A DNA stretch of 64,000 bases from NCBI GenBank assembly GCA_028709215.1, contig JAQVXI010000007.1, positions 513-64,512 of the forward strand, given 5' to 3'. The notes below the pieces were generated by a model. The model saw only the letters and a program-made list of their open reading frames with translations, did not search any database and had not been told where the DNA came from. The position numbers and the translations under genes were made by a program. Source of the stretch: Bacteroidales bacterium. GTDB lineage: Bacteria > Bacteroidota > Bacteroidia > Bacteroidales > UBA1402. Positions 19,701-35,049 of this stretch are shown here, in pieces; position 1 is the stretch's first letter; each line of letters opens with the position of its first letter.

Positions 19701-20589
19701 AGGTCAATTCCGGATCCATCTCATAGTCAGCAGGTAGCAGTCCCGTCAATTTGGAATCCGAGAAAGGCCCCCATTCTGCCGGATAACCCGGGATACTGTT
19801 GGGCTGGTTGACCACATCGTCCGGAAAAATATAGCTCTGTGTCACAACCCGGCTGGATAGCCAGCCTTCCTTTTCAAGAACAGCTCGAACAACGGTTGTT
19901 GTTTGAATGGGAATGAGGCCATTGTAAATGCTCCCATTGGTCGCAGAAGGCGTGCTCCCATCCAATGTATAACGAATATTCGCACCAGACACCGGATTGA
20001 CGATGGCCAGTTGAAACGGGGTCTCAAACAAACCACGTGGCGTATCAAAGGAAGGTACCGGCAATTGCAATTCCCCAATGGATTCCGGTTCTGATCCGGG
20101 ACTGGGTACGGTCATATACACATACTGCCCCTCCACAAAACCGTACGACACATCGGTATATTGTTCGGGATAAGCCGGATAGAAACGGCTTTTAAACTGA
20201 CCCTGGGCATCCAGCAGGGCTAGATACTCTCCTCCGGCAGTCAGCTTGAAGTTGCTATGCAAACCGGACGGATTGCTTTTTCGATTTTTATCGGAAGCAA
20301 AAACGATCAAACAGCCTTTTGCCGGAATTTGCACCTCCGGAAATACCCATTTTTGGTTATCGTTGACATCATCCGTCAACACCCAACCTTGCAGCGATAC
20401 CGCGATTTCACCGGAATTGTACAACTCAATCCAATCCGAAAAATCACCATCTTCATCCGAAAGCGTGGACGCGTTTGAAGCCATAAACTCGTTGATTCGT
20501 ACATCTTGGGCATTTAGTTGCCCGGCAACCGGGCAAAAGAGCCCGCATAGGAGTATCAGTCCCAGAAAAAAGGTGTTGTGTCGTTTCAT
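16732..20589 (-). CDS. Giant secreted CotH-family protein with two lamin-tail domains, Fn3-associated/chitobiase-C-like modules and a T9SS C-terminal sorting domain
   Basis: 1285 aa with a signal peptide. LTD motifs at both ends (VRINEFMASN...DWIELYN...L.GW.L.D and LKMTEIQYHP...EFIELKN). CotH core (FVHLYINGLYWGVYAPSERLDKDFAEAYL, NFIDYMLVNFYGGNTDWDGHNWVAMYN, FMCWDAENML). C-terminus PNPFQYGTELLYTL...VFSITGQVV...LPAGIYFCRL...AKLVK is a typical T9SS CTD. Confidence 0.8.
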   Translation of the reverse strand: MKRHNTFFLGLILLCGLFCPVAGQLNAQDVRINEFMASNASTLSDEDGDFSDWIELYNSGEIAVSLQGWVLTDDVNDNQKWVFPEVQIPAKGCLIVFASDKNRKSNPSGLHSNFKLTAGGEYLALLDAQGQFKSRFYPAYPEQYTDVSYGFVEGQYVYMTVPSPGSEPESIGELQLPVPSFDTPRGLFETPFQLAIVNPVSGANIRYTLDGSTPSATNGSIYNGLIPIQTTTVVRAVLEKEGWLSSRVVTQSYIFPDDVVNQPNSIPGYPAEWGPFSDSKLTGLLPADYEMDPELTSDPAEAERIREGLRDLPTLSLVTDANHLFSHEKDPVLGGIYIYTGPYGGYGSGWERPISFELIDSKRGLHSQIDCGIRMQGQASRLNEKNPKHSFIVLFKDEYGSKKWDFPLFSDGSNTEHNKLVLRAGFGDSWTHWAHSDRVISSNQSDIWAKDMHRAMGHASPTSAFVHLYINGLYWGVYAPSERLDKDFAEAYLDGSEDDFDVIKNSYTEVVDGNSTMMRYLFGLAQKPSITNDVYQQLMGNFPDGTRNPDANALVDMDNFIDYMLVNFYGGNTDWDGHNWVAMYNRVNPGKGFQFMCWDAENMLEYVNDSRVSAVNNNSPTQLLQKLMTNPTFKRRFQDRVQKHCYNGGLLTPENTAAIWFKRSDEIRKAMHAEAARWGDNRRDVFNYGNDAAYLYNVPDFWNPRQTYMETEYFPKRTDIFVKQLTNVGYFPSVSAPEIRVNGIAPTEETYDVGDAVELTVGEGQIVYTLDGTDPIDWSASNLPTKEWTLVAQESDKRVLVPSSDIGTSWRNLAYDDASWGLVLGAPGGVGYSSNASMLALISHDLRNQMSSSAVNPNTTCYLRVPFEIADTVLSQIERLRLLIQYDDGFAAYLNGVQVTSSNIPAVLNWNASAPEANVASGWVEIDLTESIKHLRVGKNVLALHGLNKNTGSSDFLLLPKLLAGNQRITNQRVSETASFYAGSFELEHSVHIKARSYSNGSWSAMTDRSLRIAADYNDLKMTEIQYHPLGSDSLTDTEYEFIELKNTGKATLDLSGLYFDMGVSFAFPDGHSLLPDSFVVLSSNERAFYDRYNLFPDGEYDGQLSNSGETLRLMRWDDVPLMQTAYEDANGWTTMADGMGYSLVPVHANPYEDQNLAHTWRASYDIGGSPGKDDQASVVSSETSERIWNDAFEGNVPNPFQYGTELLYTLEADARVDLTVFSITGQVVARPVAEWQTSGRHRVQWSATDARGNELPAGIYFCRLDIKGSQRSASFTAKLVKRGN

Positions 20590-22622: not shown

Positions 22623-23423
22623 ATGACAACAGAAAACCAGACTAAAACCGTTGGGTTATGCTTATCGGGGGGAGGCGCCATCGGATTTGCCCATATCGGC
22701 GTATTAAAAGCCTTAGAAGAAAATGGCATACAGGCAGAGGTCGTCTCCGGATCAAGCATGGGTGCAATTATCGGAACACTGTATTCAGCAGGCTATAGTC
22801 CGGAAGAAATGATGCAAATGATTCAGGAAGATCGCTTGTATCGAGTCTCTAAATTGATGTCTTTTAAGCCAAGCTTTTGGAAATCCGGATTTTCAGGACA
22901 TAGTACCGTCGAAAAGCTCATTCATGAAACCATCCCTCACAACAGCTTCGAAGGGCTCCAGAGACGCATGCATGTTTGTGTGACCAACCTGACCCGAATG
23001 GCATGGGAAATCAAAAACCAAGGTGCGGATCTGGCAGATTGGGTTGCTGCTTCCTCCAGTATACCCGGCGTATTTGAAGCCATCGAAAAAGATGGAGCGT
23101 TCTACCTGGACGGAGGTGTTTTAAATAACCTGCCGGCACAAGCCATCCGTCCGCTCTGTCACACGCTGATCGGTGTGGATGTACTCCCACACATTCCACC
23201 CAAAAAATTAAAACAGCCCATCGATGCCATCACCAGCTGCATTCGAGGCATTCAACACCTCAATTCAGCAGAAGGGCGGTCGCTCTGCGATTTTGTAATC
23301 GAGACGACCGCCCTGAAGCGTTATCATGAATTTCGTTTTGATGCCTACCTCCGCATTTACAAGCAAGGCTATAAAGATGCCGTCGAGTATATACAGCAGC
23401 ACCCTGAAATGCTGAAGCGTTAG
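22623..23423 (+). CDS. Patatin-like phospholipase (RssA-like)
   Basis: 266 aa. Oxyanion motif LSGGGAIGFAHIGVL, nucleophile elbow GSSMGA (GxSxG), and catalytic Asp context YLDGGV. Confidence 0.85.
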   Translation: MTTENQTKTVGLCLSGGGAIGFAHIGVLKALEENGIQAEVVSGSSMGAIIGTLYSAGYSPEEMMQMIQEDRLYRVSKLMSFKPSFWKSGFSGHSTVEKLIHETIPHNSFEGLQRRMHVCVTNLTRMAWEIKNQGADLADWVAASSSIPGVFEAIEKDGAFYLDGGVLNNLPAQAIRPLCHTLIGVDVLPHIPPKKLKQPIDAITSCIRGIQHLNSAEGRSLCDFVIETTALKRYHEFRFDAYLRIYKQGYKDAVEYIQQHPEMLKR

Positions 23424-26400
23424 TGTGGGCGCTCCAACGTGACGCCCATCAATCCAATAACAACTTCGTTGGCACGTGTTTCAACGGAGAGTGACTTCAG
23501 TGCTTTGTTTGGGTCCAGGACAAGATCCAGAACCGTAGCCATTCCACCATCCACCACGATCGGATCGTTGGACATTTTTAGGCCCAAGACACCGGCGTGA
23601 TGGCGATGCACATCACCCGTTTTCAAACGAACCCGATAGGGTCTGGGTTGATTGCTTCGAAAAGCGGCTCCATCCAAAAAGATGTCCTGATCCAAGGGAA
23701 GCAAATTATCCGGCAAGACCAAGGGCAAGACCGATTCCGAACCATCCGTATAACGCACTCGAATGCGTCCGTTCAACACATGTGCCTGCATGTGGTAGGT
23801 GGATGCGGCCACCAGCAAATAAGCGCGGTTTGCGTTCCCCTGCAACGGAAACTGTACCTGATTGGGATAATTATCCCACAAAGTGGTAAATACGACATTG
23901 GAAGCAGCCGTATCCGAAGGCGTCGCAAACGGAATGCCCTGAGGCAGCACAAAGACATCATTAACCGCCTTTGCACGGAGACCACGATCATCAATCTTGG
24001 ATAAATCGTTGGGGTGACACCACTGCCCCATACCTTGTGTAGGTACCTGCAATGTAGTATACGGCCAGCGTGGACTTACGTACTTGCCATAGGCAAAGAT
24101 ATCACGCACACGGTCGTTAAAAAATGGTTTTAAGTCGACCGGCTCATACACCGTTTGTGCCGGATTCGCAAGAGTCCAATTGATGGCAGTATGTTCCAAA
24201 CATTGCTCACCTACTTCCACTCGGATTGCATTGCTTCCGAATCGAACCTTCGAACCCGTCCATTCCAACGTCTTGGTCTCAAACGGTTCAAACTGCACCA
24301 AACGCTTCTCAGATCCGAAATTCAAGGCTATTTGGGCCGAAACAGGGTTGGCACTGTTGTTGGTTAGGTCTACTTTCAACACATCCGCTTCCGAATGTGT
24401 TTGGAAGGAAATCAAATCTTTTACATGGATATCAACCGGTTGCCACCAACTCATGGCATCCAGTGAGTGCTTAACGAAGACGCTTCGATGGCCCTTCGCG
24501 CCAACGATGCGACCTACCCACTGACGGTTTTTCAACGTAGGTTGAGCAAACACCTGCTGGGGGTCATAGACCTCCTCAGCCGACGCGTCCAGCGGCAAAG
24601 CAAATGTGGCACCCGATACCGCAACATACGAAGGCATCTTTGTCGACAACCGTTCGCCCGACCACTCTATCTCCACATCCATTGCACCGGAGACTTCAGC
24701 TTCAATCAACAACAAAGGTCTCCCGACCGATTCGGCTACGAAACGCGTTTCGACGTTTTTTCCATTTACACGAACCTGTTTCACGGAGGTTTGACGGACT
24801 GGAATCTCCAGTTGCATGCGCTTCAACCCGTTCAATTGAGCATCGATGCGATAGGATTCTCGTGCGCCCTTTACGGAGAAATCGTAGGTTAGATTTAATG
24901 TTTTCAAATGTGCATGGTCCCAATCCTGAGGAAATCCGGGACGCACGCGCAAAACGCCTTGTACCATATCCGGGTACAGACCAAATAAGCCATGCACCAG
25001 ACCGCGTGTCGCCGTAGCAACCGGATCGGCAAAATCCCGATAAGTTTCACCACGGGCTGCGTCATAAAACGAAACCTGTGTGATGTTGCCGGGGCCGGAG
25101 CCCAGATACATGGCATCCATCAGCGCACCTTTGTATAGAGACATGGCTTTTTCCGGCCGACCTGCCTGCCAGTAGGACAGCGCAGTATGGGTCACTTCTG
25201 CAAAAGCGACGTTGTTGATGGACCACATATACGGCTGCCAATCGGTGGTTGCGACGACGTACAGACTGGTATCCTTCAGGCCTTCTGCCCGAACCGGTAT
25301 GTGTGGGATGTGGGTATCGACGTATCGGCTGGCCTGCCACCCCTGAAATGGATCGTGAATTTCCGAATCCAGTGCGTGGTAAATGGTCCAAACGGCAGCG
25401 TGTTCGTGTTGCATTTTATACCCCATATTGTCCTTAAACTCGGCCCACCAGCCCAGTCGGGGCAGCCAGAGTGTTTCGTTTAAGGCCTTCAATATACGGT
25501 CTGCTTCGATTTGGTAGGGTGTTGGATCCATCCCAATGCGTTCGGCCAGTTCGGCAGCCAGGCGATTGGCCCGATAATTATACGCCGTAGAATGGGTTCC
25601 AACCCCTCCGTTGTACTGCAAACCATCCGAAGCCCAGATGCAGGCATAGCCGTCGTATAAGGCATCGTCGTCGGGATCAAACAACTGTTTTTCCCAAGCC
25701 AAATGCCGGTCAATCACCGGAAAAATCTCTTTGACATAGGCCATATCACCCGTCCACTTTATGTGCCACAGCAATTCATCCATATACACCAAATTCATGT
25801 CGTAATGATGCATGGTCGTTTGGGTGCCGGGATAACGCGTGATGTAACCGTTGCTGTACATGGGAGTACCCCACTGTTTTTTGGAGCGGGCCAGATTCAG
25901 TTGATCATCCTGTAAATGAGGCAAGACAACCGGGACATCGGTCAATTGCGAAGCGGCATAGGCATCAAAATGCACACGTGCCCGGTCGTGCAGCCCAAGC
26001 AAGTCGGCCACATACGAACCACGCCATCCCGTTAGGGGCGCCCGCCAACCAATGGCACCATGCAAATACCCGGGATCTTCCCAAATGGCATCTTCTGCTC
26101 CTGCGATCACCGAACCCAACGTGTTCAGGTACGGATCAGGCGTTTGCACTTCAATCCTGCCGGCGATCTCCAGTCGGCGTTGATCCCCTTCCTTATACGC
26201 TTTGGGTAAATCACGCAAGGACAATGCTTTCTTTCTGCTGGAAGGATTATACATCATTATATAATCCGCTTTCCCTACCCTCTTTTGTTCCACCAGCAAC
26301 AAAGGAAATTCGTCTGCCTTCGAACCATACAATTCGGATAGATTCTCCAAACGGTTGGCATCCACCAGACGCATCAAACTACCTTTGGGAAACAATCCAT

Positions 26401-27031
26401 TGACTTGTTTCTCTTTGCCGTAACGGAGTTCAAACCCATGGGCTTGAAGACGAAACTGATTGTTGCGACACTTGGCCGGCTCAATGTAAAAACTGTTGAT
26501 CGGATCCGCGCCGATGTCTCCACTTCTGGAAAAACGCCGGTCGTTGGCAGCACCATAAATCCAAAGCAAACTCAGATCGCTCGGACAGTTCTGACCTTCT
26601 ACGCGGAGCACGTAGCCATCGGCATCAGACAAGGCAACCACCTCGATGTTCAACCGGCCATCGCCCAAAAGGGCAGGCTCCTCTATCATCCATTGTCGGT
26701 AACCCGACACAAAGCGAGAAGACACCTGAGCATCCTTTACCCAAAGGAACTGTTCTCCCCTTTTAAGTGCGAGATACATACTGCCGCCAAAATTCGGCAT
26801 ATACATCCCGAACTCCGGATAGTCACTGGTTTCAAGACGAAACCCGGTATTGGTCCCATACAATGCTCTGGAAAACCGGGCATTCCCATGCTCGTTGATA
26901 AAATACTCACCATCGGGCTTATAGCGCAAACTGCGTTCTTTTCCGTGCCAGTAATCCGCACTCCCGTGCATGGGCATACCCAGTATCAACAGAAAAAAGA
27001 CGACGCTCAAAAGTCGAGCAAATTGTTTCAT
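23420..27031 (-). CDS. Large secreted protein of unassigned family; the central region looks like an (alpha/alpha)6 six-hairpin glycosidase fold
   Basis: 1203 aa with a signal peptide (MKQFARLLSVVFFLLILGMPMHGSA). The central region is rich in W/Y/D/E (WASDGLQYNGG, YNYRANRLAAELAE, WWAEFKD, WQPYMW), followed by beta-rich C-terminal domains. I could not recognise a family-diagnostic motif by eye. Confidence 0.35.
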   Translation of the reverse strand: MKQFARLLSVVFFLLILGMPMHGSADYWHGKERSLRYKPDGEYFINEHGNARFSRALYGTNTGFRLETSDYPEFGMYMPNFGGSMYLALKRGEQFLWVKDAQVSSRFVSGYRQWMIEEPALLGDGRLNIEVVALSDADGYVLRVEGQNCPSDLSLLWIYGAANDRRFSRSGDIGADPINSFYIEPAKCRNNQFRLQAHGFELRYGKEKQVNGLFPKGSLMRLVDANRLENLSELYGSKADEFPLLLVEQKRVGKADYIMMYNPSSRKKALSLRDLPKAYKEGDQRRLEIAGRIEVQTPDPYLNTLGSVIAGAEDAIWEDPGYLHGAIGWRAPLTGWRGSYVADLLGLHDRARVHFDAYAASQLTDVPVVLPHLQDDQLNLARSKKQWGTPMYSNGYITRYPGTQTTMHHYDMNLVYMDELLWHIKWTGDMAYVKEIFPVIDRHLAWEKQLFDPDDDALYDGYACIWASDGLQYNGGVGTHSTAYNYRANRLAAELAERIGMDPTPYQIEADRILKALNETLWLPRLGWWAEFKDNMGYKMQHEHAAVWTIYHALDSEIHDPFQGWQASRYVDTHIPHIPVRAEGLKDTSLYVVATTDWQPYMWSINNVAFAEVTHTALSYWQAGRPEKAMSLYKGALMDAMYLGSGPGNITQVSFYDAARGETYRDFADPVATATRGLVHGLFGLYPDMVQGVLRVRPGFPQDWDHAHLKTLNLTYDFSVKGARESYRIDAQLNGLKRMQLEIPVRQTSVKQVRVNGKNVETRFVAESVGRPLLLIEAEVSGAMDVEIEWSGERLSTKMPSYVAVSGATFALPLDASAEEVYDPQQVFAQPTLKNRQWVGRIVGAKGHRSVFVKHSLDAMSWWQPVDIHVKDLISFQTHSEADVLKVDLTNNSANPVSAQIALNFGSEKRLVQFEPFETKTLEWTGSKVRFGSNAIRVEVGEQCLEHTAINWTLANPAQTVYEPVDLKPFFNDRVRDIFAYGKYVSPRWPYTTLQVPTQGMGQWCHPNDLSKIDDRGLRAKAVNDVFVLPQGIPFATPSDTAASNVVFTTLWDNYPNQVQFPLQGNANRAYLLVAASTYHMQAHVLNGRIRVRYTDGSESVLPLVLPDNLLPLDQDIFLDGAAFRSNQPRPYRVRLKTGDVHRHHAGVLGLKMSNDPIVVDGGMATVLDLVLDPNKALKSLSVETRANEVVIGLMGVTLERPH

Positions 27032-27131
27032 AACCTATGTATTTTTAGCGATATACCATTCAATATTCACGAAAATAGTTAAATCATCACAGAAAACCAC
27101 TGCCGTGTTTCGGATTTGGCAAATACTTCAC

Positions 27132-27139
27132 TATTTTTG
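27132..27139 (+). promoter_or_regulatory. Bacteroidota -7 promoter box (TAttTTTG) for the five-gene operon at 27170-32423
   Basis: TATTTTTG lies 31 nt upstream of the ATG at 27170. This implies a leader of ~25 nt, too short for a riboswitch. Confidence 0.4.
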
Positions 27140-27169
27140 GACGAACAAACCCCTATAACACAGAAAAAC

Positions 27170-27679
27170 ATGACCACAAGTATTGCCTTCAACCCAGTAG
27201 AACTGACGATTCGTGAACGTCGCACCTACCTATTTGCCGGATTGTTTATTGCAGGCAACCTTCTTTTGCCACAATTGGCCCACCTCATCCCTCAGGGTGG
27301 CCCCATGTTTTTACCCATCTATTTCTTTACGTTGATTGCTGCATACAAATACGGATGGAAAGTCGGTTTACTAACGGCCATCGCATCACCCCTTGCCAAT
27401 CACGCTTTATTTGGCATGCCTATGGTGGCTATGCTCCCTGTGATTCTTATTAAATCAAGCCTTTTGGCCGTTTTTGCGGCCTTGATCGCCCAAAAAAGCC
27501 AAAAAGTATCGCTGGGTTTACTCGCCTTGGTCATTCTATCCTATCAGATCCTTGGAGGATTGGGCGAATGGGCCATCACTTCCAGTTTTGCAGCCGCCGT
27601 ACAAGACTTCAAACTGGGTTTCCCCGGACTGCTCATTCAATGGATTCTGGGCTGGCAACTACTTAAAAAAATGGCCTAA
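27170..27679 (+). CDS. Small polytopic membrane protein, ECF S-component-like (putative substrate-capture/transport protein)
   Basis: 169 aa from MTTSIAFNPVE, with 5-6 hydrophobic helices (LFAGLFIAGNLLLPQLAHLIPQGGPMFLPIYFFTLIAAY...). The family call rests on overall resemblance only. Confidence 0.45.
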   Translation: MTTSIAFNPVELTIRERRTYLFAGLFIAGNLLLPQLAHLIPQGGPMFLPIYFFTLIAAYKYGWKVGLLTAIASPLANHALFGMPMVAMLPVILIKSSLLAVFAALIAQKSQKVSLGLLALVILSYQILGGLGEWAITSSFAAAVQDFKLGFPGLLIQWILGWQLLKKMA

Positions 27680-27680
27680 A

Positions 27681-28100
27681 ATGCAAAGTAAAAGCTTTGA
27701 AGAGGTTCTGGAGCGTATGCAGCAACTGCCGATTACGGAACCGTTCGATCTGATTGTCGCCATTGCCAACGGCGGAATCATACCGGCGGCACTGCTCAAT
27801 CAAACCTTGGGTTTGGATTTGCATCTGCTAAAATTGCATTTGCGGGACGCCCATCAAAAACAACTCTACGATGCGCCACAGCTATTGGAGCCGCTGCGCG
27901 TAGACGTTCGAGGCAAACGGATTTTGCTGGTGGAGGATCGCATTAAAACCGGCACCACGGTACTGTTTGCCGTAGATTTGCTTAAAAAAGCCGGCGCTCA
28001 ATGCGTAAAAACCTTTGCGGTAAACGGACCCGCCGACTACAGTCTTTACAACGAAACCTGTTTCCGGTTTCCCTGGATTCGCACACAAACAAAAACATAA
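27681..28100 (+). CDS. Small type I phosphoribosyltransferase (Gpt-like)
   Basis: 139 aa from MQSKSFEEV (ATG 1 nt after the preceding stop). LIVAIANGGIIPAALL and the PRPP-binding loop ILLVEDRIKTGTT. The C-terminal FPW resembles xanthine-guanine PRTases. Confidence 0.75.
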   Translation: MQSKSFEEVLERMQQLPITEPFDLIVAIANGGIIPAALLNQTLGLDLHLLKLHLRDAHQKQLYDAPQLLEPLRVDVRGKRILLVEDRIKTGTTVLFAVDLLKKAGAQCVKTFAVNGPADYSLYNETCFRFPWIRTQTKT

Positions 28101-28110
28101 AATCTGCCCC

Positions 28111-29043
28111 ATGAAACGACGAGACTTTTTAAAAGCAGCCGCGCTTACCGGGCTGGCAACCACCCTCAAATGGAAGGATGGAATGGAATTGATGGCTCAA
28201 AAACAAAGCACCGGTTCGAAGATTCCGGATTTGGTCGCAGTGATGGGTGGAGAGCCCGCAGCAATGTTCCGAAAAGCCATCGTTGAAATGGGTGGCATGG
28301 GACGGTTTGTCAAAAAAGGACAACGAGTCACCATAAAACCCAACATCGGCTGGGATCGCAGCCCGGAACGTGCAGCCAACACCAACCCCGAATTGGTGGC
28401 TGAAATCGTACGACAATGCCTTCAGGCAGGAGCAAAAGAAGTGTTGGTCTTTGACCACACCTGCGACGAATGGAAAAAATGTTACACCAACAGTGGCATC
28501 GAAGCGGCAGCCAAAAACGCGGGTGCAAAAGTCGTGCCCGGTCACGAATCCTCGTATTATCGCGAAGTCACCTTACCCAAAGGCAAACGGCTGAAACAGG
28601 CCAGCATCCATACGGCCATTCTCGATTGTGATGTATGGATCAACGTACCCATTCTCAAAAACCACGGGGGTGCCAAAATGACCATTTCAATGAAAAATCT
28701 AATGGGTATTGTTTGGGATCGCGGGTATTTTCATCGAAACGACTTACAACAGTGCATTGCAGACATTTGTACCCTAGGCAAAGCGCCGGTTCTAAATGTG
28801 GTGGATGCCTACCGCGTCATGAAGACACATGGACCACAAGGCCGATCGGAAGCAGATGTAGTCAACCCCAAAGCCATGTTTGTCTCGACCGATATGGTGG
28901 CAGTAGATACGGCTGCAACCAAATTTTTTGGTCAAATTCAAGAAATGCCGCTTGACTCCGTGGGTCACATCGCAAACGGCGCAGCACACAAATTGGGAAC
29001 AATGGATCTGGAATCGCTGACCATCAAACGCATAAGCCTCTGA
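28111..29043 (+). CDS. Tat-exported DUF362-domain protein
   Basis: 310 aa. N-terminal twin-arginine signal MKRRDFLKAAALTGLATT. DUF362-like core VTIKPNIGW...NPELVAEIVRQCLQAGAKEVLVFD...ILKNHGGAKMTISMKNLMG...VVDAYRVMKTHGPQG...STDMVAVD. Confidence 0.75.
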   Translation: MKRRDFLKAAALTGLATTLKWKDGMELMAQKQSTGSKIPDLVAVMGGEPAAMFRKAIVEMGGMGRFVKKGQRVTIKPNIGWDRSPERAANTNPELVAEIVRQCLQAGAKEVLVFDHTCDEWKKCYTNSGIEAAAKNAGAKVVPGHESSYYREVTLPKGKRLKQASIHTAILDCDVWINVPILKNHGGAKMTISMKNLMGIVWDRGYFHRNDLQQCIADICTLGKAPVLNVVDAYRVMKTHGPQGRSEADVVNPKAMFVSTDMVAVDTAATKFFGQIQEMPLDSVGHIANGAAHKLGTMDLESLTIKRISL

Positions 29044-29045
29044 CC

Positions 29046-30590
29046 ATGAAGTTATCGACCGCTCGGAAGATGCTTGGGATCCTGTCGTTTGCGGCCATTA
29101 CGCTTACGTTTCTGGACTTTGCCGGTATTTTTCCGCAATCCTTTTTTCTGATAACCAAAATCCAGCTGGTGCCGGCCCTTCTTTCCGGAGCATTCTTGAC
29201 CGTAGGCGTATTGCTGCTGTTAACCTGGATTTTTGGACGCATCTATTGCTCCGTGATTTGTCCGCTTGGCGTCTATCAGGATCTGGTCGCCTGGATCTAC
29301 AAACGTTTTAAGCCCAAGCGTAAATTTCGCTTTAGCCCGCCCAAAACCAGCCTACGCCTGGCTTTCCTCGCACTGGTCGTTGTGGGCTATTTTGCCGGTT
29401 TCACCCTCCTGCTCAACCTGTTTGAACCCTATAGTGTATACGGACGCATGACGACCCACGTGGCTCGACCATTGTATATGGCCGGCAACAACCTATTGGC
29501 AGAGATCGCTCACTACTTCGGCTCGTACACCTTCTACAACGTGCACGTGTTCACACTAAGCCTTTTTGCGTTGGCCGTATCCATCCTGAGTCTGGCTGCC
29601 GTTAGTTTACTGGCAACCATCGGAGGAAGAAGCTGGTGCAATACGGTTTGTCCGGTCGGAACGGTATTGGGTTGGATATCAAAATACTCCCTGTTTCAGA
29701 TTCGCTTTCAAGCCGATCATTGCACACACTGCAATCGTTGCGCCCGTGACTGCAAAGCCTCTTGCATTGACAGCAAAACCATGCAGGTGGACACCAATCG
29801 TTGTGTCATGTGTTTTAACTGCCTGGATGCCTGTCAAGAACAGGCCTTAGTGTATAAGATACAACGACCGGAACGCAACGCAAAAAAACAAACGGCCAAA
29901 AACGGTGCGGAGTCCACAAAGGGAATGAACCGAAGGGATTTTCTCAAAACAACCGGAGGGGTAGCAGGCATGATTGGTGTAAGTGCTTTGGCTTCAGCCG
30001 CCCCCAAACAAACGAAAACACCCATTTACGTGAAGCAGCACCCCATCAGTCCTCCGAGCGCAGGAAGCACAGCCGCCTTGCTGGATGCATGTACCGCCTG
30101 TCAGCTCTGCATCACCGAATGTCCCAGCAACGTACTCAAGCCCGCCTTTATGGAATACGGAATGGGAGGCATGATGCAGCCACGAATGGATTTCAATAAG
30201 GGCTATTGCAATTACGACTGCACACGTTGCACCGAAGTCTGTCCAACAGGAGCGTTGAAGCCCCTTACGACAGAACAAAAACACCGCACCCAAATGGGAC
30301 ACGTTGTTTTTATCAAGACCAGCTGTGTGGTATATACCGACGAGACCAGTTGTGGAGCCTGCTCGGAACATTGTCCTACGCAAGCCGTTAAGATGGTTCC
30401 TTACAAAAACGGATTGACCATACCCGAAGTAGAACCGGACATTTGTGTGGGTTGTGGGGGTTGTGAATACATCTGCCCCGTTCGCCCGCTCACCGCGATC
30501 TATGTCGAAGGGAATCCGGTACACCTGGAAGCACAAGCGTTTGAAACAGCAAAAAAAGAACACGTTGAACTGAATGATTTTGGCTTTTAA
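29046..30590 (+). CDS. Membrane-anchored polyferredoxin: NapH-like N-terminal module fused to a NapG-like Fe-S module through an internal twin-arginine/TM segment
   Basis: 514 aa. Several N-terminal TM helices carry two CX3CP motifs (CSVICPLG, CNTVCPVG). Six Fe-S cluster motifs (CTHCNRCARDC, CVMCFNCLDAC, CTACQLCITECP, CNYDCTRCTEVCP, CGACSEHCP, CVGCGGCEYICP). Internal MNRRDFLKTTGGVAGMIGVSALASA. Confidence 0.8.
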   Translation: MKLSTARKMLGILSFAAITLTFLDFAGIFPQSFFLITKIQLVPALLSGAFLTVGVLLLLTWIFGRIYCSVICPLGVYQDLVAWIYKRFKPKRKFRFSPPKTSLRLAFLALVVVGYFAGFTLLLNLFEPYSVYGRMTTHVARPLYMAGNNLLAEIAHYFGSYTFYNVHVFTLSLFALAVSILSLAAVSLLATIGGRSWCNTVCPVGTVLGWISKYSLFQIRFQADHCTHCNRCARDCKASCIDSKTMQVDTNRCVMCFNCLDACQEQALVYKIQRPERNAKKQTAKNGAESTKGMNRRDFLKTTGGVAGMIGVSALASAAPKQTKTPIYVKQHPISPPSAGSTAALLDACTACQLCITECPSNVLKPAFMEYGMGGMMQPRMDFNKGYCNYDCTRCTEVCPTGALKPLTTEQKHRTQMGHVVFIKTSCVVYTDETSCGACSEHCPTQAVKMVPYKNGLTIPEVEPDICVGCGGCEYICPVRPLTAIYVEGNPVHLEAQAFETAKKEHVELNDFGF

Positions 30591-30593
30591 CAC

Positions 30594-32423
30594 ATGAAAA
30601 GAAAAATACATAGTATCTTCTTGTTTTTCCTGGGTTCTTCCCTTTTACAGGCCTCGGAGACGTTGCCTGTTCACATAACATTGGATAGTATTCTGGTCAA
30701 TGAAGTCTATGCCAACCAAAACAAGACTTCTCAAACAGCCAGTAAAACAATTATTGACGCAAAACAGCTGGAACAGAGCGGATCGCACAGCGTCTTGTCA
30801 GCTCTTAAGGGCGCCGTACCGGGCATGAACATCACGGAACGAAATACAATGGGGTACGGCATTTATACAGGCGCTGCCGGAGGCATCTCCCTGCGTGGAA
30901 TGGGCGGAAGTCCGATGACACAAGTACAAATAGCCGTCGACGGCGTACCGCAGATGATGGGCATTCACGGGCATCACATCCCGGATGAATACGGCACAGA
31001 GGGTCTTGAACGAATCGAAGTACAACGAGGGCCTGCCTCCCTACAATATGGTTCCAATGCAATGGGAGGGGTCATCAACCTGGTAACACGTGATCGACGC
31101 ACAGAGGGCTTTGGCGGGCGCATTCAGGCAGAAGCCGGCTCCTACAATACCCACCGGATCAACGGTCGAATGGAAGCCAGACACAAGGATCTTAGCGGAT
31201 GGATTGCAGGAAGCAGGGGTCAAACCGACGGACATCGACCACACGCCGACTTTGACCAATGGTCCGGAAGTGGCAAGCTCGCATATAAAATATCACCACA
31301 TTGGAATGTTGCAGCCCATGCCCAATGGACCGACTTTCGTTCGCTGGATCCGGGAAGCCTTCAGCAACCGGCTCAAAACGACTCCTTGCTGGCAGAAGTC
31401 ATGCGCTATTCCACACAATTGCAGGTAAACAACCACTACGACAACAGCCAAGGACTTCTTCGCATCTTTTACAACGGTGGCAACCATGTATTGTATGATG
31501 GTTGGAACTCCGATGATTACAACATAGGCCTACTGGCTCAACAATCGTTCACACTTCACACCAACAACCGAATCCATCTGGGAGTTGAACAACGTTCGTA
31601 TGGAGGAAAAGCGTTTCGTACAAACAATGCAGCCTTTCATCTGGATCAATGGATGCATCAAACCGGAGTTTTCACACAAATCCAACAACATTTGTTTAAC
31701 CGAAGACTCTTGCTGGAAGGCGGTATACGTTGGGACAACAACACTTCGTACGGATCAGAGTGGATACCGCAAATTGGGGCCGGCTGGCAGTTTTCCCCCG
31801 CATGGAAACTCGTCGCCTCACATTCCAAAGGATACCGAAATCCAACGCTGCGTGAATTATTTGTCGTAATGCCCAATGCTGAATTGCTACCCGAACGACT
31901 CGTTCAGACGGAAGCAAGTCTCGTGCATCACGCATCCAACAACCGCTTATTTACCGAATTGACGGCTTATCATGTTCAAGGGGATAACCAAATCATACCC
32001 ATTAACACCAATGGAGTCATGCGGTATCAGAATACCGGAACCATAGACAATATGGGGATGGACATTCATATGCGCTATACATTTGGTATTCCCTTAAGCA
32101 TTACCGGGAATTATACGTATTTGCATCAGGATAAACGCACAGCTGGTACGGCAACACACCAATGGAGCATTCAAGCAAACCAGACCTATAAACAGCACAA
32201 CTTCAATGTTCAATGGATGCATTTGATGGATTACTGTTCGGCTCAGAACACAACCGACTTCTCCAATCTATTTTTGCTGGACGCCCGCTACCGATGCCAA
32301 ATCAATACGGATTTAGCCTTCAGCCTGAGCGGCAACAACCTATTAAACAAACCCATAGAATGGGTTAAAGGATATCCCACGCCCGGCATTTCTGTGCTGG
32401 CCGGCATCGAACTTCGCTTCTAA
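30594..32423 (+). CDS. TonB-dependent outer-membrane receptor (small, non-SusC type)
   Basis: 609 aa. Signal peptide, plug domain (ERIEVQRGPASLQYGSNAMGGVINLVT), beta-barrel, C-terminal ...GIELRF. Confidence 0.85.
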   Translation: MKRKIHSIFLFFLGSSLLQASETLPVHITLDSILVNEVYANQNKTSQTASKTIIDAKQLEQSGSHSVLSALKGAVPGMNITERNTMGYGIYTGAAGGISLRGMGGSPMTQVQIAVDGVPQMMGIHGHHIPDEYGTEGLERIEVQRGPASLQYGSNAMGGVINLVTRDRRTEGFGGRIQAEAGSYNTHRINGRMEARHKDLSGWIAGSRGQTDGHRPHADFDQWSGSGKLAYKISPHWNVAAHAQWTDFRSLDPGSLQQPAQNDSLLAEVMRYSTQLQVNNHYDNSQGLLRIFYNGGNHVLYDGWNSDDYNIGLLAQQSFTLHTNNRIHLGVEQRSYGGKAFRTNNAAFHLDQWMHQTGVFTQIQQHLFNRRLLLEGGIRWDNNTSYGSEWIPQIGAGWQFSPAWKLVASHSKGYRNPTLRELFVVMPNAELLPERLVQTEASLVHHASNNRLFTELTAYHVQGDNQIIPINTNGVMRYQNTGTIDNMGMDIHMRYTFGIPLSITGNYTYLHQDKRTAGTATHQWSIQANQTYKQHNFNVQWMHLMDYCSAQNTTDFSNLFLLDARYRCQINTDLAFSLSGNNLLNKPIEWVKGYPTPGISVLAGIELRF

Positions 32424-32433
32424 ACACAAACGC

Positions 32434-35049
32434 GTGCAACTTCAATTCAACATACATTACAATCCAAACAACGGACAACGTTTGGCCATCCGAGGCATTC
32501 GGAGCCAACCCCTAGCCATGGATTACAAGGGCGACGGTTATTGGCAACTCAATTTGGAAATTCAAACATGCGGCACACTGGACTATACGTACATTGTACA
32601 AGAAGAAAACCGAATGGTTCGAGAAGAATGGGGCAAGCCGCATCGGGTCTATATTCCAACCCAAGATACCATTCGCTGCCTTTTCAACGACCACTGGCAG
32701 GAAGCCCCCCCTACTCCCTGGTTTTATTCACAGGTGTTTCAAAACAGCTTGTTTCGTCAAGACTATACAGCCGAAGACCTTCAGCCAAAAGCAGGAAATC
32801 TACTTTGTTCCGTTTTTGTACCAAGAGTAGAAGCACATCAATACGTAGGAATTGTCGGATCCGGAAAGGCCTTGGGTAATTGGACGACCCCCATTCCCAT
32901 GCATGCTGGGGTATATCCCGAATGGACTGTATGCTTGGACAGCCGTCAAATCGGACAAAACCCGGAATTTCAATACGTTATTTGTGATCGAAGCAGTCAC
33001 CGGATTCTCTCTTGGGAATGGGGACGCCCCCATCAGCTTTGGATTGCTCAGCCCGCCGAAATCCATGTACAATACTATTCAGGACTGTACTTCCGAAGCC
33101 AGCAACCGCCCTGGAGAGCTTGTGGCACGGCCATTCCTGTTTTCTCACTCCGATCCAAACGGTCTTGGGGTTGTGGTGACTTTGGAGATTTAAAAACGAT
33201 GATTCAATGGACCGCAGCAACGGGTCAGAAAATGCTTCAACTGCTTCCGATCAACGACAGCAATCTTACTGGAACCTGGTTGGATTCGTATCCCTATCAA
33301 TGCACCTCCATCTACGCACTCAACCCCCTGTATTTGGATATGCATCAATTACCCTGCCTTCAGGACACAAAGCAAAGCCACTTGCTTGAACAACAAGGAT
33401 ATGCACTCAATCAAAAAGAAAGCATGGATTACGAAGCGGTAATCCATCTAAAAATGCAGGCTGCTCGAATGCTTTTTGACCAGGAAAAAAACTATATTCA
33501 AACGGATAAAGACTACCAACGTTTTTTGGATCGCCATCGGGTTTGGTTGAAACCCTATGCCGTGTTCAAACATCTTCAGGTTCAATTCAACAGCTACAAC
33601 ACAAACGACTGGCAAGAATTCAGTACGTACGACGAGTCCATCGTTGCGTCGATCCGGCATCCGGACATTGAGTTCCACTATGCCATTCAATTCTGGCTGC
33701 ACAAGCAACTTGAGTCTGCGCATCAATATGCACAACAGATGGGCATCGCCCTAAAAGGAGATATACCCATTGGTATACACCCCAACAGTGTGGAAGCATG
33801 GACACAACCGCAACTCTTTCGTACTGACTGCCACATCGGCGCCCCTCCGGATGTATTCTCACAATCCGGTCAAAATTGGGGATTTCCTGCATACAATTGG
33901 GAAGCGATGCAGGCTGACGCCTACGAATGGTGGCGCAAACGTTTTCAACATCTTTCTACCTATGTCGATGCGTATCGAATCGATCACATCCTTGGTTTCT
34001 TCCGTATATGGGAGAATCCTTCGACAGCGGTAGAGGGACTGTTGGGTCAATTTCAACCCGCACTGCCTTATGATGCAAGCGATCTTAAAGCCTACGGCTT
34101 TGATTTAGATCCTTCCCATACACTTGCTCAATTTCGTGATGCGGCCTTGGATGCGTTATTGGGAGTACATCGATCGGAAATACAAACGAGCTACTTAAAA
34201 CAAAAAGAAACGGGGGTGTGGCAACTCAAAACGGCCTATCGCGACCAACGTGCCATTCAACAACACGTGCAAGACCCAACGCATCGATCGCTACTATTCT
34301 CGCTGTGCGGAGAAGTGCTCTTCGTTTTAGACCACCGCAACCCAAATCGACTCCATCCACGTATCCTCGCATCCAATACGCAACGATACAAAGAATTGTC
34401 TCACGAAAACCGACAGGCGTTTGATCGGCTCTATGAGGATTTTTTCTTTCATCGACACACGGACTTCTGGAAAGCAAAAGCGCTTGAAAAAATTCCCGCA
34501 CTCATTCACTCTACGGATATGTTGGCCTGCGGAGAAGATTTGGGTATGATACCGGCTTGTGTGCCGGATGTGCTGAAGCAACTGAACATCTTAAGTTTGG
34601 AAATACAACGCATGCCGAAAAAACCGGGACAACGTTTTGCCGTACTCCAAGAGCTGCCCTACCTGGCCGTATGCTGCAGCTCTTCACACGACCTCAGCCC
34701 CTTGCGTTCTTGGTGGGAAGAAGATCCGGCACAAACACAACGCTATTTCGAAGAAGTGCTTTGGCAGCAAGGCAAGGCACCAGAAACACTTAGTCCGGAG
34801 TGGGCTGAACAAATTTTGGCACAGCACTTATCGGCACCCTGTATGTGGGTCATCAACCCTTTACAGGACTGGATGGCCATTGATGGGAAGTTACGCAAAC
34901 AAGATCCGCATTCCGAACGCATCAACCAGCCGGCCAACCCAAAACATTATTGGCAGTATCGTATGCACCTTACGTTGGAAGAACTGATCGAAAACAACGA
35001 TTTCACAGAACACGTCCGGAGGTTGATTACACACTCCGGACGCAACTAA
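32434..35049 (+). CDS. malQ: 4-alpha-glucanotransferase (GH77 amylomaltase) with N-terminal CBM20-like domains
   Basis: 871 aa with an apparent GTG start 10 nt after the receptor stop. GH77 motifs DAYRIDHILGFFRIW, ACGEDLGMIP and SSSHD. No signal peptide. Confidence 0.85.
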   Translation: MQLQFNIHYNPNNGQRLAIRGIRSQPLAMDYKGDGYWQLNLEIQTCGTLDYTYIVQEENRMVREEWGKPHRVYIPTQDTIRCLFNDHWQEAPPTPWFYSQVFQNSLFRQDYTAEDLQPKAGNLLCSVFVPRVEAHQYVGIVGSGKALGNWTTPIPMHAGVYPEWTVCLDSRQIGQNPEFQYVICDRSSHRILSWEWGRPHQLWIAQPAEIHVQYYSGLYFRSQQPPWRACGTAIPVFSLRSKRSWGCGDFGDLKTMIQWTAATGQKMLQLLPINDSNLTGTWLDSYPYQCTSIYALNPLYLDMHQLPCLQDTKQSHLLEQQGYALNQKESMDYEAVIHLKMQAARMLFDQEKNYIQTDKDYQRFLDRHRVWLKPYAVFKHLQVQFNSYNTNDWQEFSTYDESIVASIRHPDIEFHYAIQFWLHKQLESAHQYAQQMGIALKGDIPIGIHPNSVEAWTQPQLFRTDCHIGAPPDVFSQSGQNWGFPAYNWEAMQADAYEWWRKRFQHLSTYVDAYRIDHILGFFRIWENPSTAVEGLLGQFQPALPYDASDLKAYGFDLDPSHTLAQFRDAALDALLGVHRSEIQTSYLKQKETGVWQLKTAYRDQRAIQQHVQDPTHRSLLFSLCGEVLFVLDHRNPNRLHPRILASNTQRYKELSHENRQAFDRLYEDFFFHRHTDFWKAKALEKIPALIHSTDMLACGEDLGMIPACVPDVLKQLNILSLEIQRMPKKPGQRFAVLQELPYLAVCCSSSHDLSPLRSWWEEDPAQTQRYFEEVLWQQGKAPETLSPEWAEQILAQHLSAPCMWVINPLQDWMAIDGKLRKQDPHSERINQPANPKHYWQYRMHLTLEELIENNDFTEHVRRLITHSGRN

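Follow-up and report, generated by a model that had tools for sequence, protein, structure and literature searches.

A conserved Bacteroidales operon couples a Tat-exported DUF362 protein of predicted LarA-like fold to a NapH-NapG-type polyferredoxin and a permease-phosphoribosyltransferase-receptor set

Operons associating TM1506, an aldo-keto reductase (AKR) and a "5TM protein" were described by Iyer et al. in 2011 (PMC3239186), who also reported fusions of TM1506 to TonB-like receptors and argued that TM1506 binds an NAD- or ADP-ribose-like ligand. Until the description of NphT, an AKR-fold enzyme which tethers a nickel-pincer mononucleotide via a His and a Lys residue, LarA, the lactate racemase, was the sole fold shown to tether this cofactor, and hundreds of prokaryotes make the nickel-pincer cofactor without possessing LarA (Nat Chem 2026, PMC13524815). 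Among the polyferredoxins, the "polytopic polyferredoxin" MLMS-1, which depends on both the Sec and the twin-arginine translocation (Tat) pathways, is a fusion of NapH and NapG (Tooke et al. 2017, PMC5449189). The operon considered in the present work, which many anaerobic Bacteroidota share, consists of five genes at positions 27132-32423 of a stretch of 64,000 nucleotides (nt), hereafter the window, from a Bacteroidales bacterium (GenBank assembly GCA_028709215.1, contig JAQVXI010000007.1, positions 513-64,512 of the forward strand), and encodes a small permease, a mini-phosphoribosyltransferase (PRTase), a DUF362 protein, a polyferredoxin and a TonB-dependent receptor. It is well supported that a Tat-exported enzyme of LarA fold cooperates with, and perhaps docks on, a NapH-NapG wire leading to the quinone pool, and equally that the permease-PRTase(-receptor) unit is functionally tied to this exported enzyme. 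As to the role of the unit, the reading favoured here, to which we give a probability of roughly 0.35, is that the permease, the PRTase and the receptor supply a nucleotide-type hydride cofactor, or its precursor, to the exported DUF362 protein. The operon is laid out as follows.

27132-27139, + strand: Bacteroidota-type -7 box TATTTTTG (TAnnTTTG), 38 nt 5' of the permease ATG
27170-27679, + strand: permease gene ("Scomp"), 169 amino acids (aa) counted from the ATG, six-helix membrane protein
27681-28100, + strand: mini-PRTase gene, 139 aa, divergent type I phosphoribosyltransferase, cytoplasmic
28111-29043, + strand: DUF362 gene, 310 aa, Tat signal and predicted LarA-like fold, presumed periplasmic catalytic subunit
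29046-30590, + strand: polyferredoxin gene, 514 aa, polytopic NapH-NapG fusion
30594-32423, + strand: TonB-dependent receptor gene, 609 aa, BtuB-sized, with signal peptide and C-terminal Phe

An earlier note, made from the letters of this DNA and its open reading frames (ORFs), had described five same-strand ORFs behind a single promoter box, and both the ORF listing and the sequence of the window bear this out, with intergenic gaps of 1, 10, 2 and 3 nt in the order permease, PRTase, DUF362, polyferredoxin and receptor. The domains which that note assigned to the five proteins are also those returned by Pfam and NCBIfam, the match of the permease to PF12822 being weak. The longest ORF of the permease opens at a TTG (27116), upstream of the ATG at 27170.

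The conservation of the arrangement was assessed by scanning one genome per species with two conserved DUF362 peptides; from the 598 or more loci obtained, the best 80 were retained, and neighbours were counted by tblastn and ORF clustering, the denominators being the loci with enough sequence on the relevant side (72 downstream, 70 upstream). At E<=1e-20 the relatives of the DUF362 protein, clustered at 90% identity, number over 7,900, the best of them 68-77% identical, and the 80 loci span the Bacteroidaceae, Tannerellaceae, Dysgonomonadaceae, Paludibacteraceae, Prevotellaceae, Muribaculaceae, Prolixibacteraceae and Chitinophagaceae, together with Planctomycetota and Desulfobulbus. In 69 of 72 loci the DUF362 gene is followed, in the same orientation, by a polyferredoxin gene. 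The permease gene occurs upstream in 36/70 loci and the PRTase gene in 31/70, in each case alongside the permease. Nine loci have a small, related TonB receptor gene between those of the PRTase and DUF362, each of them with both permease and PRTase, while the order of the window, in which the receptor follows the polyferredoxin and is itself followed by MalQ, recurs in related metagenomic genomes (L095-L098). The remaining flank content varies across the 80 loci. The neighbourhood survey suggested in the earlier note therefore speaks for its proposal of one conserved functional unit: the gene order is conserved across families and orders, and because the arrangement recurs at this depth it is not a chance adjacency.

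The spacing of the genes is uneven. From permease to PRTase the median gap is 8 nt, with an overlap of the two genes in 10/39 loci and a PRTase start less than 20 nt from, or overlapping, the permease stop in 29/39. From DUF362 to polyferredoxin it is 11 nt (n=77), and from PRTase to receptor 1 nt, with an overlap in four of the nine loci concerned; from PRTase to DUF362 it reaches 53 nt. According to this pattern the operon is made of two tightly coupled sub-modules, a division that is well supported: a redox sub-module (DUF362 and polyferredoxin) and a supply sub-module (permease and PRTase, joined in some loci by the small TonB receptor). Each of them occurs in variant forms. Five loci retain the permease and have no PRTase, the permease and DUF362 genes being separated there by 14-76 nt. 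In a GC-rich lineage, a distant permease homologue belongs to a permease-PRTase-DUF362(Tat) trio devoid of an adjacent polyferredoxin. In at least six Bacteroides loci the permease and PRTase genes stand between the genes of a cytoplasmic and a periplasmic DUF362 protein. The cytoplasmic paralogue, in which a 2x[4Fe-4S] ferredoxin domain is inserted and a CDCW motif is present in addition (L026, 2519-3640; equivalents in L017, L021, L025, L027 and L039), is encoded directly 5' of the permease gene in these six, and appears to be co-transcribed with it since no TAnnTTTG box separates them.

The wider gap in the middle of the operon could also be the mark of a composite, in which functionally unrelated units, namely a stray receptor, a respiratory oxidoreductase of the periplasm and a pair salvaging nucleobases or vitamins, share a promoter through genome compaction only. 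The median of 53 nt, compared with 8 and 11 nt elsewhere, agrees with such a composite, as does the fact that each sub-module can be absent. A further match to the -7 consensus, TAGATTTG, lies within the PRTase gene at 27973-27980 (+), 138 nt before the DUF362 start, and might act as an internal promoter of the redox sub-module, such matches being no denser than background. A composite is nevertheless very improbable: the adjacency persists over the Bacteroidales, the Chitinophagales and the distant GC-rich lineage with fully reshuffled flanks, the tiny permease family is found beside DUF362 or an AKR in every context recovered, and the AKR/TM1506 system presented below repeats the same logic.

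The DUF362 protein matches PF04015 over positions 1-199 of the 200 of the profile (185.8 bits for a cut-off of 24). Its AlphaFold2 (AF2) model is of moderate quality (predicted local distance difference test, pLDDT, 77.8; predicted template-modelling score, pTM, 0.81). In a Foldseek comparison of this model with the PDB, the top 18 matches, which are the sole significant ones, all consist of LarA, LarA-like or Mar2 proteins (E=8e-7 to 2e-4, 228-277 columns, TM-score up to 0.51), the match to LarA extending over about 260-275 columns. DUF362 and LarA_N share the Pfam clan CL0471. Sequence searches against the PDB returned no match even at E<=10, and hence no sequence-level match to LarA. As a prediction from the model, the two-domain LarA fold of the DUF362 protein is well supported.

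Ten residues, K76, N78, D82, D115, C118, K183, H185, K195, N196 and H208, show no variation among 84 periplasmic DUF362 sequences; H116 is conserved in 75 of them and replaced by Asn in the other nine. In LarA, the cofactor is held by K184 and H200 and catalysis is performed by H108 and H174. As compared by spacing, motif and fold match, the H116/H185/K195/H208 set of DUF362, with steps of +10 and +13 from H185 to K195 to H208, resembles the H108/H174/K184/H200 set of LarA in its His-x9-Lys...His spacing. The segment H174-FFAGFSGGR-K184 of LarA finds a counterpart with a similar AGF-GG motif in the cytoplasmic DUF362 paralogue, H-EQAGFGGAL-K, which is followed by a His 16 residues further on as in LarA. 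An iron-sulfur (Fe-S) cluster within DUF362 itself was considered and rejected: Cys118 is the sole invariant Cys among the 84 sequences, which makes an intrinsic four-Cys cluster unlikely.

DUF362 differs from LarA in being about 110 residues shorter, in its predicted export through Tat and in its coupling to Fe-S electron carriers; in addition, no larB, larC or larE gene occurs near it, in contrast with the lar cluster. Since a racemase needs no electron wire, a net redox chemistry is expected of DUF362. In the lar cluster of L. plantarum, LarA stands beside genes for cofactor synthesis and a transporter of the energy-coupling factor (ECF) type, so that this cluster, as generally known, and the DUF362 operon each pair an enzyme with an ECF-type membrane component. 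The remark of the earlier note that no activity has been assigned to the DUF362 family remains valid for the searchable literature.

The Tat signal, MKRRDFLKAAALTGLATTL...ELMAQ, has the S/T-R-R-x-F-L-K motif (RRDFLK at residues 3-8), a hydrophobic stretch and a cleavage site of the A-x-A type, and scores 21.5 with the Pfam TAT_signal model, just below the cut-off of 22.7. The twin-arginine motif occurs in 76 of the 84 DUF362 sequences. The other eight, from seven Planctomycetota metagenome-assembled genomes (MAGs) and one Prevotellaceae MAG, have R-K, R-N, R-H or R-S instead. Within their first 15 residues, the Planctomycetota proteins (L054, L059, L060, L071, L081, L085 and L086; e.g., TRKDFLK or TRNEFLK) keep the rest of the Tat consensus, and the Prevotellaceae protein (L048) reads DRKDFLR.

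The polyferredoxin contains two Fer4_5 domains and several Fer4 families in Pfam, and its residues 294-311 form a Tat-like motif inside the protein. From its motif and hydropathy map it consists of a NapH-like half with four transmembrane (TM) helices, two CxxxCP motifs and two cytoplasmic [4Fe-4S] motifs (CxxCxxCxxxC), and a NapG-like half with four periplasmic [4Fe-4S] motifs; the "2 CX3CP plus 6 Fe-S motifs" counted in the earlier note correspond exactly to this map. Between the two halves, an internal MNRRDFLK sequence precedes a weakly hydrophobic fifth helix (TM5) and Lys residues. The layout is that of NapH (four TM helices, two CxxxCP, two clusters) joined to NapG (Tat motif, four clusters), and it is shared by MLMS-1: four TM helices with two CxxxCP, two cytoplasmic clusters, a twin-Arg before a weak TM5 followed by Lys, and four periplasmic clusters. 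The best NCBIfam families are NapH/MauN (93.8 bits), NapH, NapG (71.6) and NapF (70), all below cut-off; the equivalog level is missed with 93.8 vs 213, 84.1 vs 234 and 71.6 vs 269 bits. By analogy, we infer that the polyferredoxin of the window may oxidise quinol and depend on both Sec and Tat. No napA, napB or napC gene was present at any locus examined. In contrast with NapGH, the periplasmic partner would be DUF362 instead of a molybdoenzyme or a cytochrome.

A parallel system occurs in Bacteroides finegoldii (L105, NZ_OY725888.1, 4605-8507), where a four-gene operon encodes a NapH-NapG polyferredoxin paralogue (44-50% identical), an AKR, TM1506 (DUF1893) and a permease orthologue, the latter 57-63% identical to the permeases of DUF362 clusters and 54% to that of the window. 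The AKR possesses a Tat/lipobox signal and a C-terminal 4Fe-4S domain; it keeps the D-Y-K-H tetrad, with an extra His217. To our knowledge there is no NAD(P)H in the periplasm, and an AKR located there has none in free form to use. The "5TM protein" of Iyer et al. belongs to the same family as the permease of the window. Compared with the TM1506/AKR operons, DUF362 replaces the AKR with its 4Fe-4S domain and the PRTase replaces TM1506; no AKR or TM1506 was found by tblastn in the window or the 80 loci, which share with those operons just the permease (5TM) and polyferredoxin families. The same permease and polyferredoxin families therefore serve two alternative exported enzymes, of LarA and AKR folds, and the identity of the small cytoplasmic partner changes together with that of the enzyme, DUF362 being accompanied by the PRTase and the AKR by TM1506. 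As for the statement of the earlier note that no characterised pathway has this gene combination, it stands, the related TM1506/AKR/5TM linkage having been described in 2011 (PMC3239186).

The B. finegoldii AKR has a His 40 residues past the catalytic His, which may correspond to the one 38 residues past it in NphT. The AKR has a Glu at a place that a tethering Lys might have occupied, and NphT, for its part, is cytoplasmic, lacks the Fe-S domain and is encoded beside larBCE. A second, distant permease homologue (L094) is followed by a cytoplasmic AKR.

The permease scores 25.3 bits with PF12822, below the cut-off of 30.7, as is also the case for 23 of 27 orthologues; one distant homologue passes at 32.8 bits. 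Its AF2 model has six helices (pLDDT 83.7), and its 12 best fold matches in the PDB all correspond to RibU, FolT, ThiT or the S chain of 4HUQ (TM-score 0.56-0.73 over 158-177 columns), with modest E-values of 3e-3 to 1; sequence searches against the PDB gave no match even at E<=10. NCBI labels its orthologues "ECF transporter S component". The family is small, with 864 representatives out of 1.84 billion at E<=1e-3. Neither the window flanks nor the genes that recur around the 80 loci include an ABC ATPase or EcfT-like gene. On its model, the protein has the six-helix fold of an ECF S component and would be a solitary permease, or one served by an energising EcfA/A'/T module encoded elsewhere. 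Solitary S components are known.

The PRTase matches PF00156 (53.2 bits, cut-off 26.3). Its loop for phosphoribosyl pyrophosphate (PRPP), ILLVEDRIKTGTT, shows the hydrophobic run, the two acidic residues and the T-G-x-T of the type I enzymes; V84, D86 and G91 are invariant and T90 nearly so among 24 orthologues. The closest solved relative is 1VDM, an archaeal purine PRTase of 153 aa (E=1e-8). In the alignment, ANGG of the window protein faces ARGG of 1VDM and DRIKTG faces DVSDTG, Asn30 and Lys89 being invariant. The protein thus has neither the Arg/Lys of the pyrophosphate (PPi) loop nor the Asp of the D-T-G motif that characterise the 6-oxopurine PRTases (Gpt/Hpt), and all NCBIfam PRTase equivalogs score far below cut-off.

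Transporters paired with a trapping enzyme, such as pbuX-xpt, PnuC-NadR and CblT-CblS, are common. The supply sub-module resembles them in that a small permease gene is tightly coupled to that of a cytoplasmic enzyme that would convert the cargo to a charged nucleotide. It differs in pairing an S-component-fold permease with a type I PRTase, a combination not found in the literature search, and in the operon of the window having no riboswitch. Were permease and PRTase to act as one unit, this would be the first case of an S component driven by phosphoribosyl trapping.

The small size of the PRTase and the loss of both the PPi-loop Arg and the 6-oxopurine Asp suggest another role for this protein, namely that the mini-PRTase, like TM1506 in the parallel system, senses PRPP, a nucleotide or the redox state and gates or modifies a 5-6 TM channel serving the redox enzyme. 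PRTase-fold regulators such as PyrR and PurR exist, and the tight translational coupling of PRTase and permease suggests a stoichiometric complex. A comparable function was proposed by Iyer et al., who regarded TM1506 as a redox sensor or a regulatory ADP-ribosyltransferase controlling transport (PMC3239186). Such gating is nonetheless improbable, for the invariance of the PRPP motif (acidic pair, TG-T), and of many other positions, is what an active enzyme would show, the PRTase has no DNA- or RNA-binding feature, and an interaction with the permease would have to be assumed.

In the cofactor-supply reading favoured here, the DUF362 protein would be made in the cytoplasm and exported folded through Tat, carrying with it a tightly bound hydride- or electron-accepting cofactor; such a cofactor would be necessary because the periplasm has no NAD(P)H and the protein lacks a Cys set for an Fe-S cluster of its own. 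By homology with LarA, His185, Lys195 and His208 may hold it in the form of a mononucleotide. A heterocyclic base or cofactor fragment in short supply would enter through the receptor and the permease, and the PRTase would join it to PRPP to give the mononucleotide or a precursor of it. The mononucleotide would then be loaded into apo-DUF362 before export and, where present, into the cytoplasmic DUF362-ferredoxin paralogue. In the polyferredoxin, the four Sec-inserted helices and the two cytoplasmic clusters would face the menaquinone pool, while the Tat-inserted fifth helix would place the four-cluster NapG-like domain in the periplasm. Periplasmic DUF362 would perform a hydride chemistry of the carbonyl/alcohol type, electrons passing in either direction between its cofactor and menaquinone/menaquinol via the six clusters of the polyferredoxin. 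This reading is preferred because the periplasm offers no NAD(P)H and DUF362 no Fe-S site, while LarA-like cofactor residues are kept; because PRTases make mononucleotides and the small partner co-varies with the enzyme fold; and because the supply genes follow the enzyme and not the wire, as in the GC-rich trio and the six or more Bacteroides loci with two DUF362 proteins.

Several observations weigh against it. No larB, larC or larE homologue was found in the window flanks or among the recurrent neighbours of the 80 loci, so that, were the cofactor a true nickel pincer, the insertion of sulfur and metal would lack an explanation. Neither permease nor PRTase occurs nearby in about half of the loci with the DUF362-polyferredoxin pair, and the Parabacteroides distasonis fragments from PLSDB contain DUF362 and polyferredoxin with no match for PRTase or permease. 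The PRTase is of the purine type (type I) and not of the nicotinate type. The proposed correspondence with the His and Lys residues of LarA derives from spacing, local motif and fold match, not from residue superposition, and H116 is an Asn in nine of the 84 sequences. The cytoplasmic AKR that follows the permease homologue in L094 would be explained equally well as a transporter accompanied by an enzyme for its cargo. Finally, a nickel specificity of the receptor, looked for in the NikR-like neighbours of its homologues, had to be rejected as set out below.

A close rival, somewhat unlikely in its own right, retains the idea of the earlier note that the operon salvages a redox-sensitive heterocycle: the receptor would import a compound X, DUF362 and the polyferredoxin would reduce or oxidise it in the periplasm, the permease would take up the product and the PRTase would trap it as a nucleotide, a task performed in the parallel system by TM1506, perhaps through ADP-ribosylation. 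The compartments on which that idea was built hold, with an outer-membrane receptor, a Tat-exported DUF362 protein, a NapH/NapG-type wire, an S-component-fold permease and a cytoplasmic PRTase, so that the parts span every envelope layer in the way usual for uptake loci of Bacteroidota. Within the supply sub-module, the receptor located between PRTase and DUF362 is confined to loci that have permease and PRTase as well, the overlaps of PRTase with receptor (4/9 loci) and of permease with PRTase (10/39) fit a concerted uptake, and pairs of a transporter and a trapping enzyme are, as said, widespread. In L097 and L098, which belong to one clade, a gene for PpnP, a pyrimidine/purine nucleoside phosphorylase of 93 aa (PF06865, 3222-3503), lies immediately 5' of the permease gene. 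AKRs and LarA-type enzymes share a carbonyl/alcohol hydride chemistry and could yield the same cargo for one permease, and L094 offers a case of a cytoplasmic AKR adjoining a permease homologue.

On the other side, no known heterocycle requires a periplasmic reduction prior to phosphoribosylation, the DUF362-polyferredoxin pair is autonomous in about half of the loci, and the PRTase is cleanly deleted in the five loci mentioned above that keep the permease. Moreover, the trapping enzyme switches with the enzyme fold while the permease stays 57-63% identical, and the PRTase lacks the 6-oxopurine Asp and the PPi-loop Arg. From the interpretation of the earlier note, the conserved unit and the compartments are thus retained, and an enzyme served by a cofactor supply accounts for the evidence no less well than a salvage pipeline does, because DUF362 and the polyferredoxin often occur alone, the PRTase can be missing, the permease is found beside the cytoplasmic paralogue, AKR and TM1506 are swapped in together, and the LarA fold is one with a tethered mononucleotide.

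An extension of the cofactor-supply reading, which we regard as quite unlikely, would see in DUF362, and in the Tat-exported AKR with its Fe-S domain, the first enzymes of the periplasm that are linked to quinones and use a tethered mononucleotide akin to niacin, possibly a metal pincer, which in this view a mini-PRTase builds from a base scavenged via receptor and permease. If true, it would imply a new cofactor-salvage route bypassing LarB and a new chemistry, from single-electron Fe-S transfer to hydride, outside the cytoplasm. The parts all come from known families, and NapGH-type wires as well as transporter-plus-trapping pairs are already known, the sole prior art being the genomic context note of 2011 on TM1506, AKR and 5TM proteins. 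The gene combination, the LarA-like exported enzyme and the coupling of an S component to a PRTase are new here, in that the searchable literature contains no description of them. The DUF362 family is large and occurs in human-gut Bacteroides and Parabacteroides, in termite-gut and rumen Bacteroidales, in Chitinophagales, in Planctomycetota and in Desulfobulbus, and the LarA fold, the electron wire and the permease/PRTase/receptor set turn an anonymous DUF into a testable system. For those prokaryotes that make the nickel-pincer cofactor without LarA, DUF362 is an obvious candidate client. The AKR/TM1506 system, unexplained since 2011, and the DUF362 system are now open to joint study.

The receptor contains the plug (PF07715, 76 bits) and the barrel (PF00593, 104 bits) domains of the TonB-dependent receptors, a group with 22-strand barrels. 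Its best NCBIfam model is TonB-B12 (BtuB), at 115 bits for a cut-off of 599.7, and its best solved relative is the E. coli BtuB, which aligns over the full length with a weak score (67 bits) and is similar in size (609 vs 594-614 aa). The operon of the window differs from the BtuB/B12 regulon by the absence of a cobalamin riboswitch, btuFCD and btuG. The receptors found in the window-like position in related genomes are only 37-40% identical to that of the window (37-39% in L095-L098). This weakens the view that receptors were recruited independently at two positions of the operon, as the low identity indicates that the receptor family simply evolves fast. A metagenome scan using the receptor as single query gave nothing useful.

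Homologues of the receptor outside DUF362 clusters are 33-37% identical to the window receptor and 38-47% to other DUF362-linked receptors, and lie directly 3' of NikR-family genes in two synteny contexts. These NikR-like regulators, composed of a ribbon-helix-helix (RHH) and a NikR_C domain, are encoded 5' of BtuB-sized receptors in L099 (6540-7000), L100 (5498-6000), L101 (5543-6000) and L102 (4118-5000). A direct repeat, GTAACAC-N14-GTAACAC, separates regulator and receptor in L099-L101, which represent one synteny context; L099 has an inverse half-site 5' of the regulator gene and L101 a one-mismatch version of it. The residues aligned to the nickel ligands H78, H89, H91 and C97 of the P. 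horikoshii NikR are F, G, Y and Y, respectively, and the repeat is absent upstream of the DUF362 clusters. With the four ligands replaced and the repeat missing, a nickel specificity of the receptor is not supported.

With regard to transcription, a TAnnTTTG box occurs 25-110 nt 5' of the permease gene in 17/35 loci, for 1.7 expected in shuffles. The box-less loci include all six Bacteroides loci in which the cytoplasmic DUF362-ferredoxin gene directly precedes the permease gene. The leader of the window operon measures about 40-70 nt. The earlier note had left room for the receptor and the membrane protein to belong to an already characterised regulon, such as a B12 or thiamine riboswitch unit. 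No B12 or thiamine pyrophosphate (TPP) riboswitch and no equivalog-level score with hidden Markov models (HMMs) support such an assignment: the Rfam scan of 26500-33000 returned no family at E<=1, and no riboswitch adjoins the cluster in eight other loci, so that control by a B12, TPP or other riboswitch was rejected. The TPP riboswitch of L035 (58.8 bits, 3756-3851) lies about 3 kb 5' of the cluster, before another gene, and the GibS small RNA found downstream in B. nordii (147 bits, L021, 15970-16113) is likewise unrelated to the operon. A scan of the window for sigma-70 promoters and terminators was uninformative for a member of the Bacteroidota.

The flanks of the operon encode unrelated proteins (DUF4450, patatin-like, LysR, MalQ, MetH and KdsA). 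The MalQ gene, which codes for a CBM20-GH77 4-alpha-glucanotransferase on the + strand, extends from 32434 (GTG) or 32518 (ATG) to 35049, i.e., 10 or 94 nt after the receptor gene depending on the start; TAnnTTTG matches at 32078 and 32269, within the receptor gene, could serve as its own promoter. As MalQ follows the cluster in L095-L098 and also lies 3' of it in L041, it looks like a case of clade synteny, possibly with read-through; it may be co-transcribed and stands outside the conserved module. A link with starch, based on MalQ, GH13, branching enzyme and patatin genes near the cluster, was rejected for the same reason, these genes belonging to clade-level synteny outside the conserved core. 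Similarly, a link with queuosine through the tgt gene found 3' of the polyferredoxin was rejected, since Tgt is restricted to the Tannerellaceae, where it accompanies LptF/G as family synteny.

Other neighbours are scattered among the loci. A TatC-like gene, recognised by eye from the sequence, lies directly 5' of DUF362 in L068 (553-1377) and L072 (7142-7930), and cytochrome bd-like genes (cydAB, also by eye) flank the pair in L007, L058 and L063. A Parabacteroides MAG (L014, 3446-3521) contains tandem repeats of about 23 nt with GTGTCAC just 5' of DUF362. The PLSDB records of P. distasonis (L104, NZ_OY725750.1, "plasmid 5") and B. finegoldii (L105, "plasmid 78") carry housekeeping genes of the chromosome (tgt, lptF/G, xylA and trkG), and appear to be chromosome fragments deposited as plasmids. 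Searches of the plasmid collection returned nothing but fragments of this sort, one of which gave the B. finegoldii operon. Upstream of the window operon, two very large exported proteins are encoded on the - strand, at 16732-20589 and 23420-27031: one of 1285 aa has LTD, CotH, CHB_HEX_C and FlgD_ig domains, and the other, a DUF4450 protein of 1203 aa, is encoded by a gene divergent from the promoter region of the operon.

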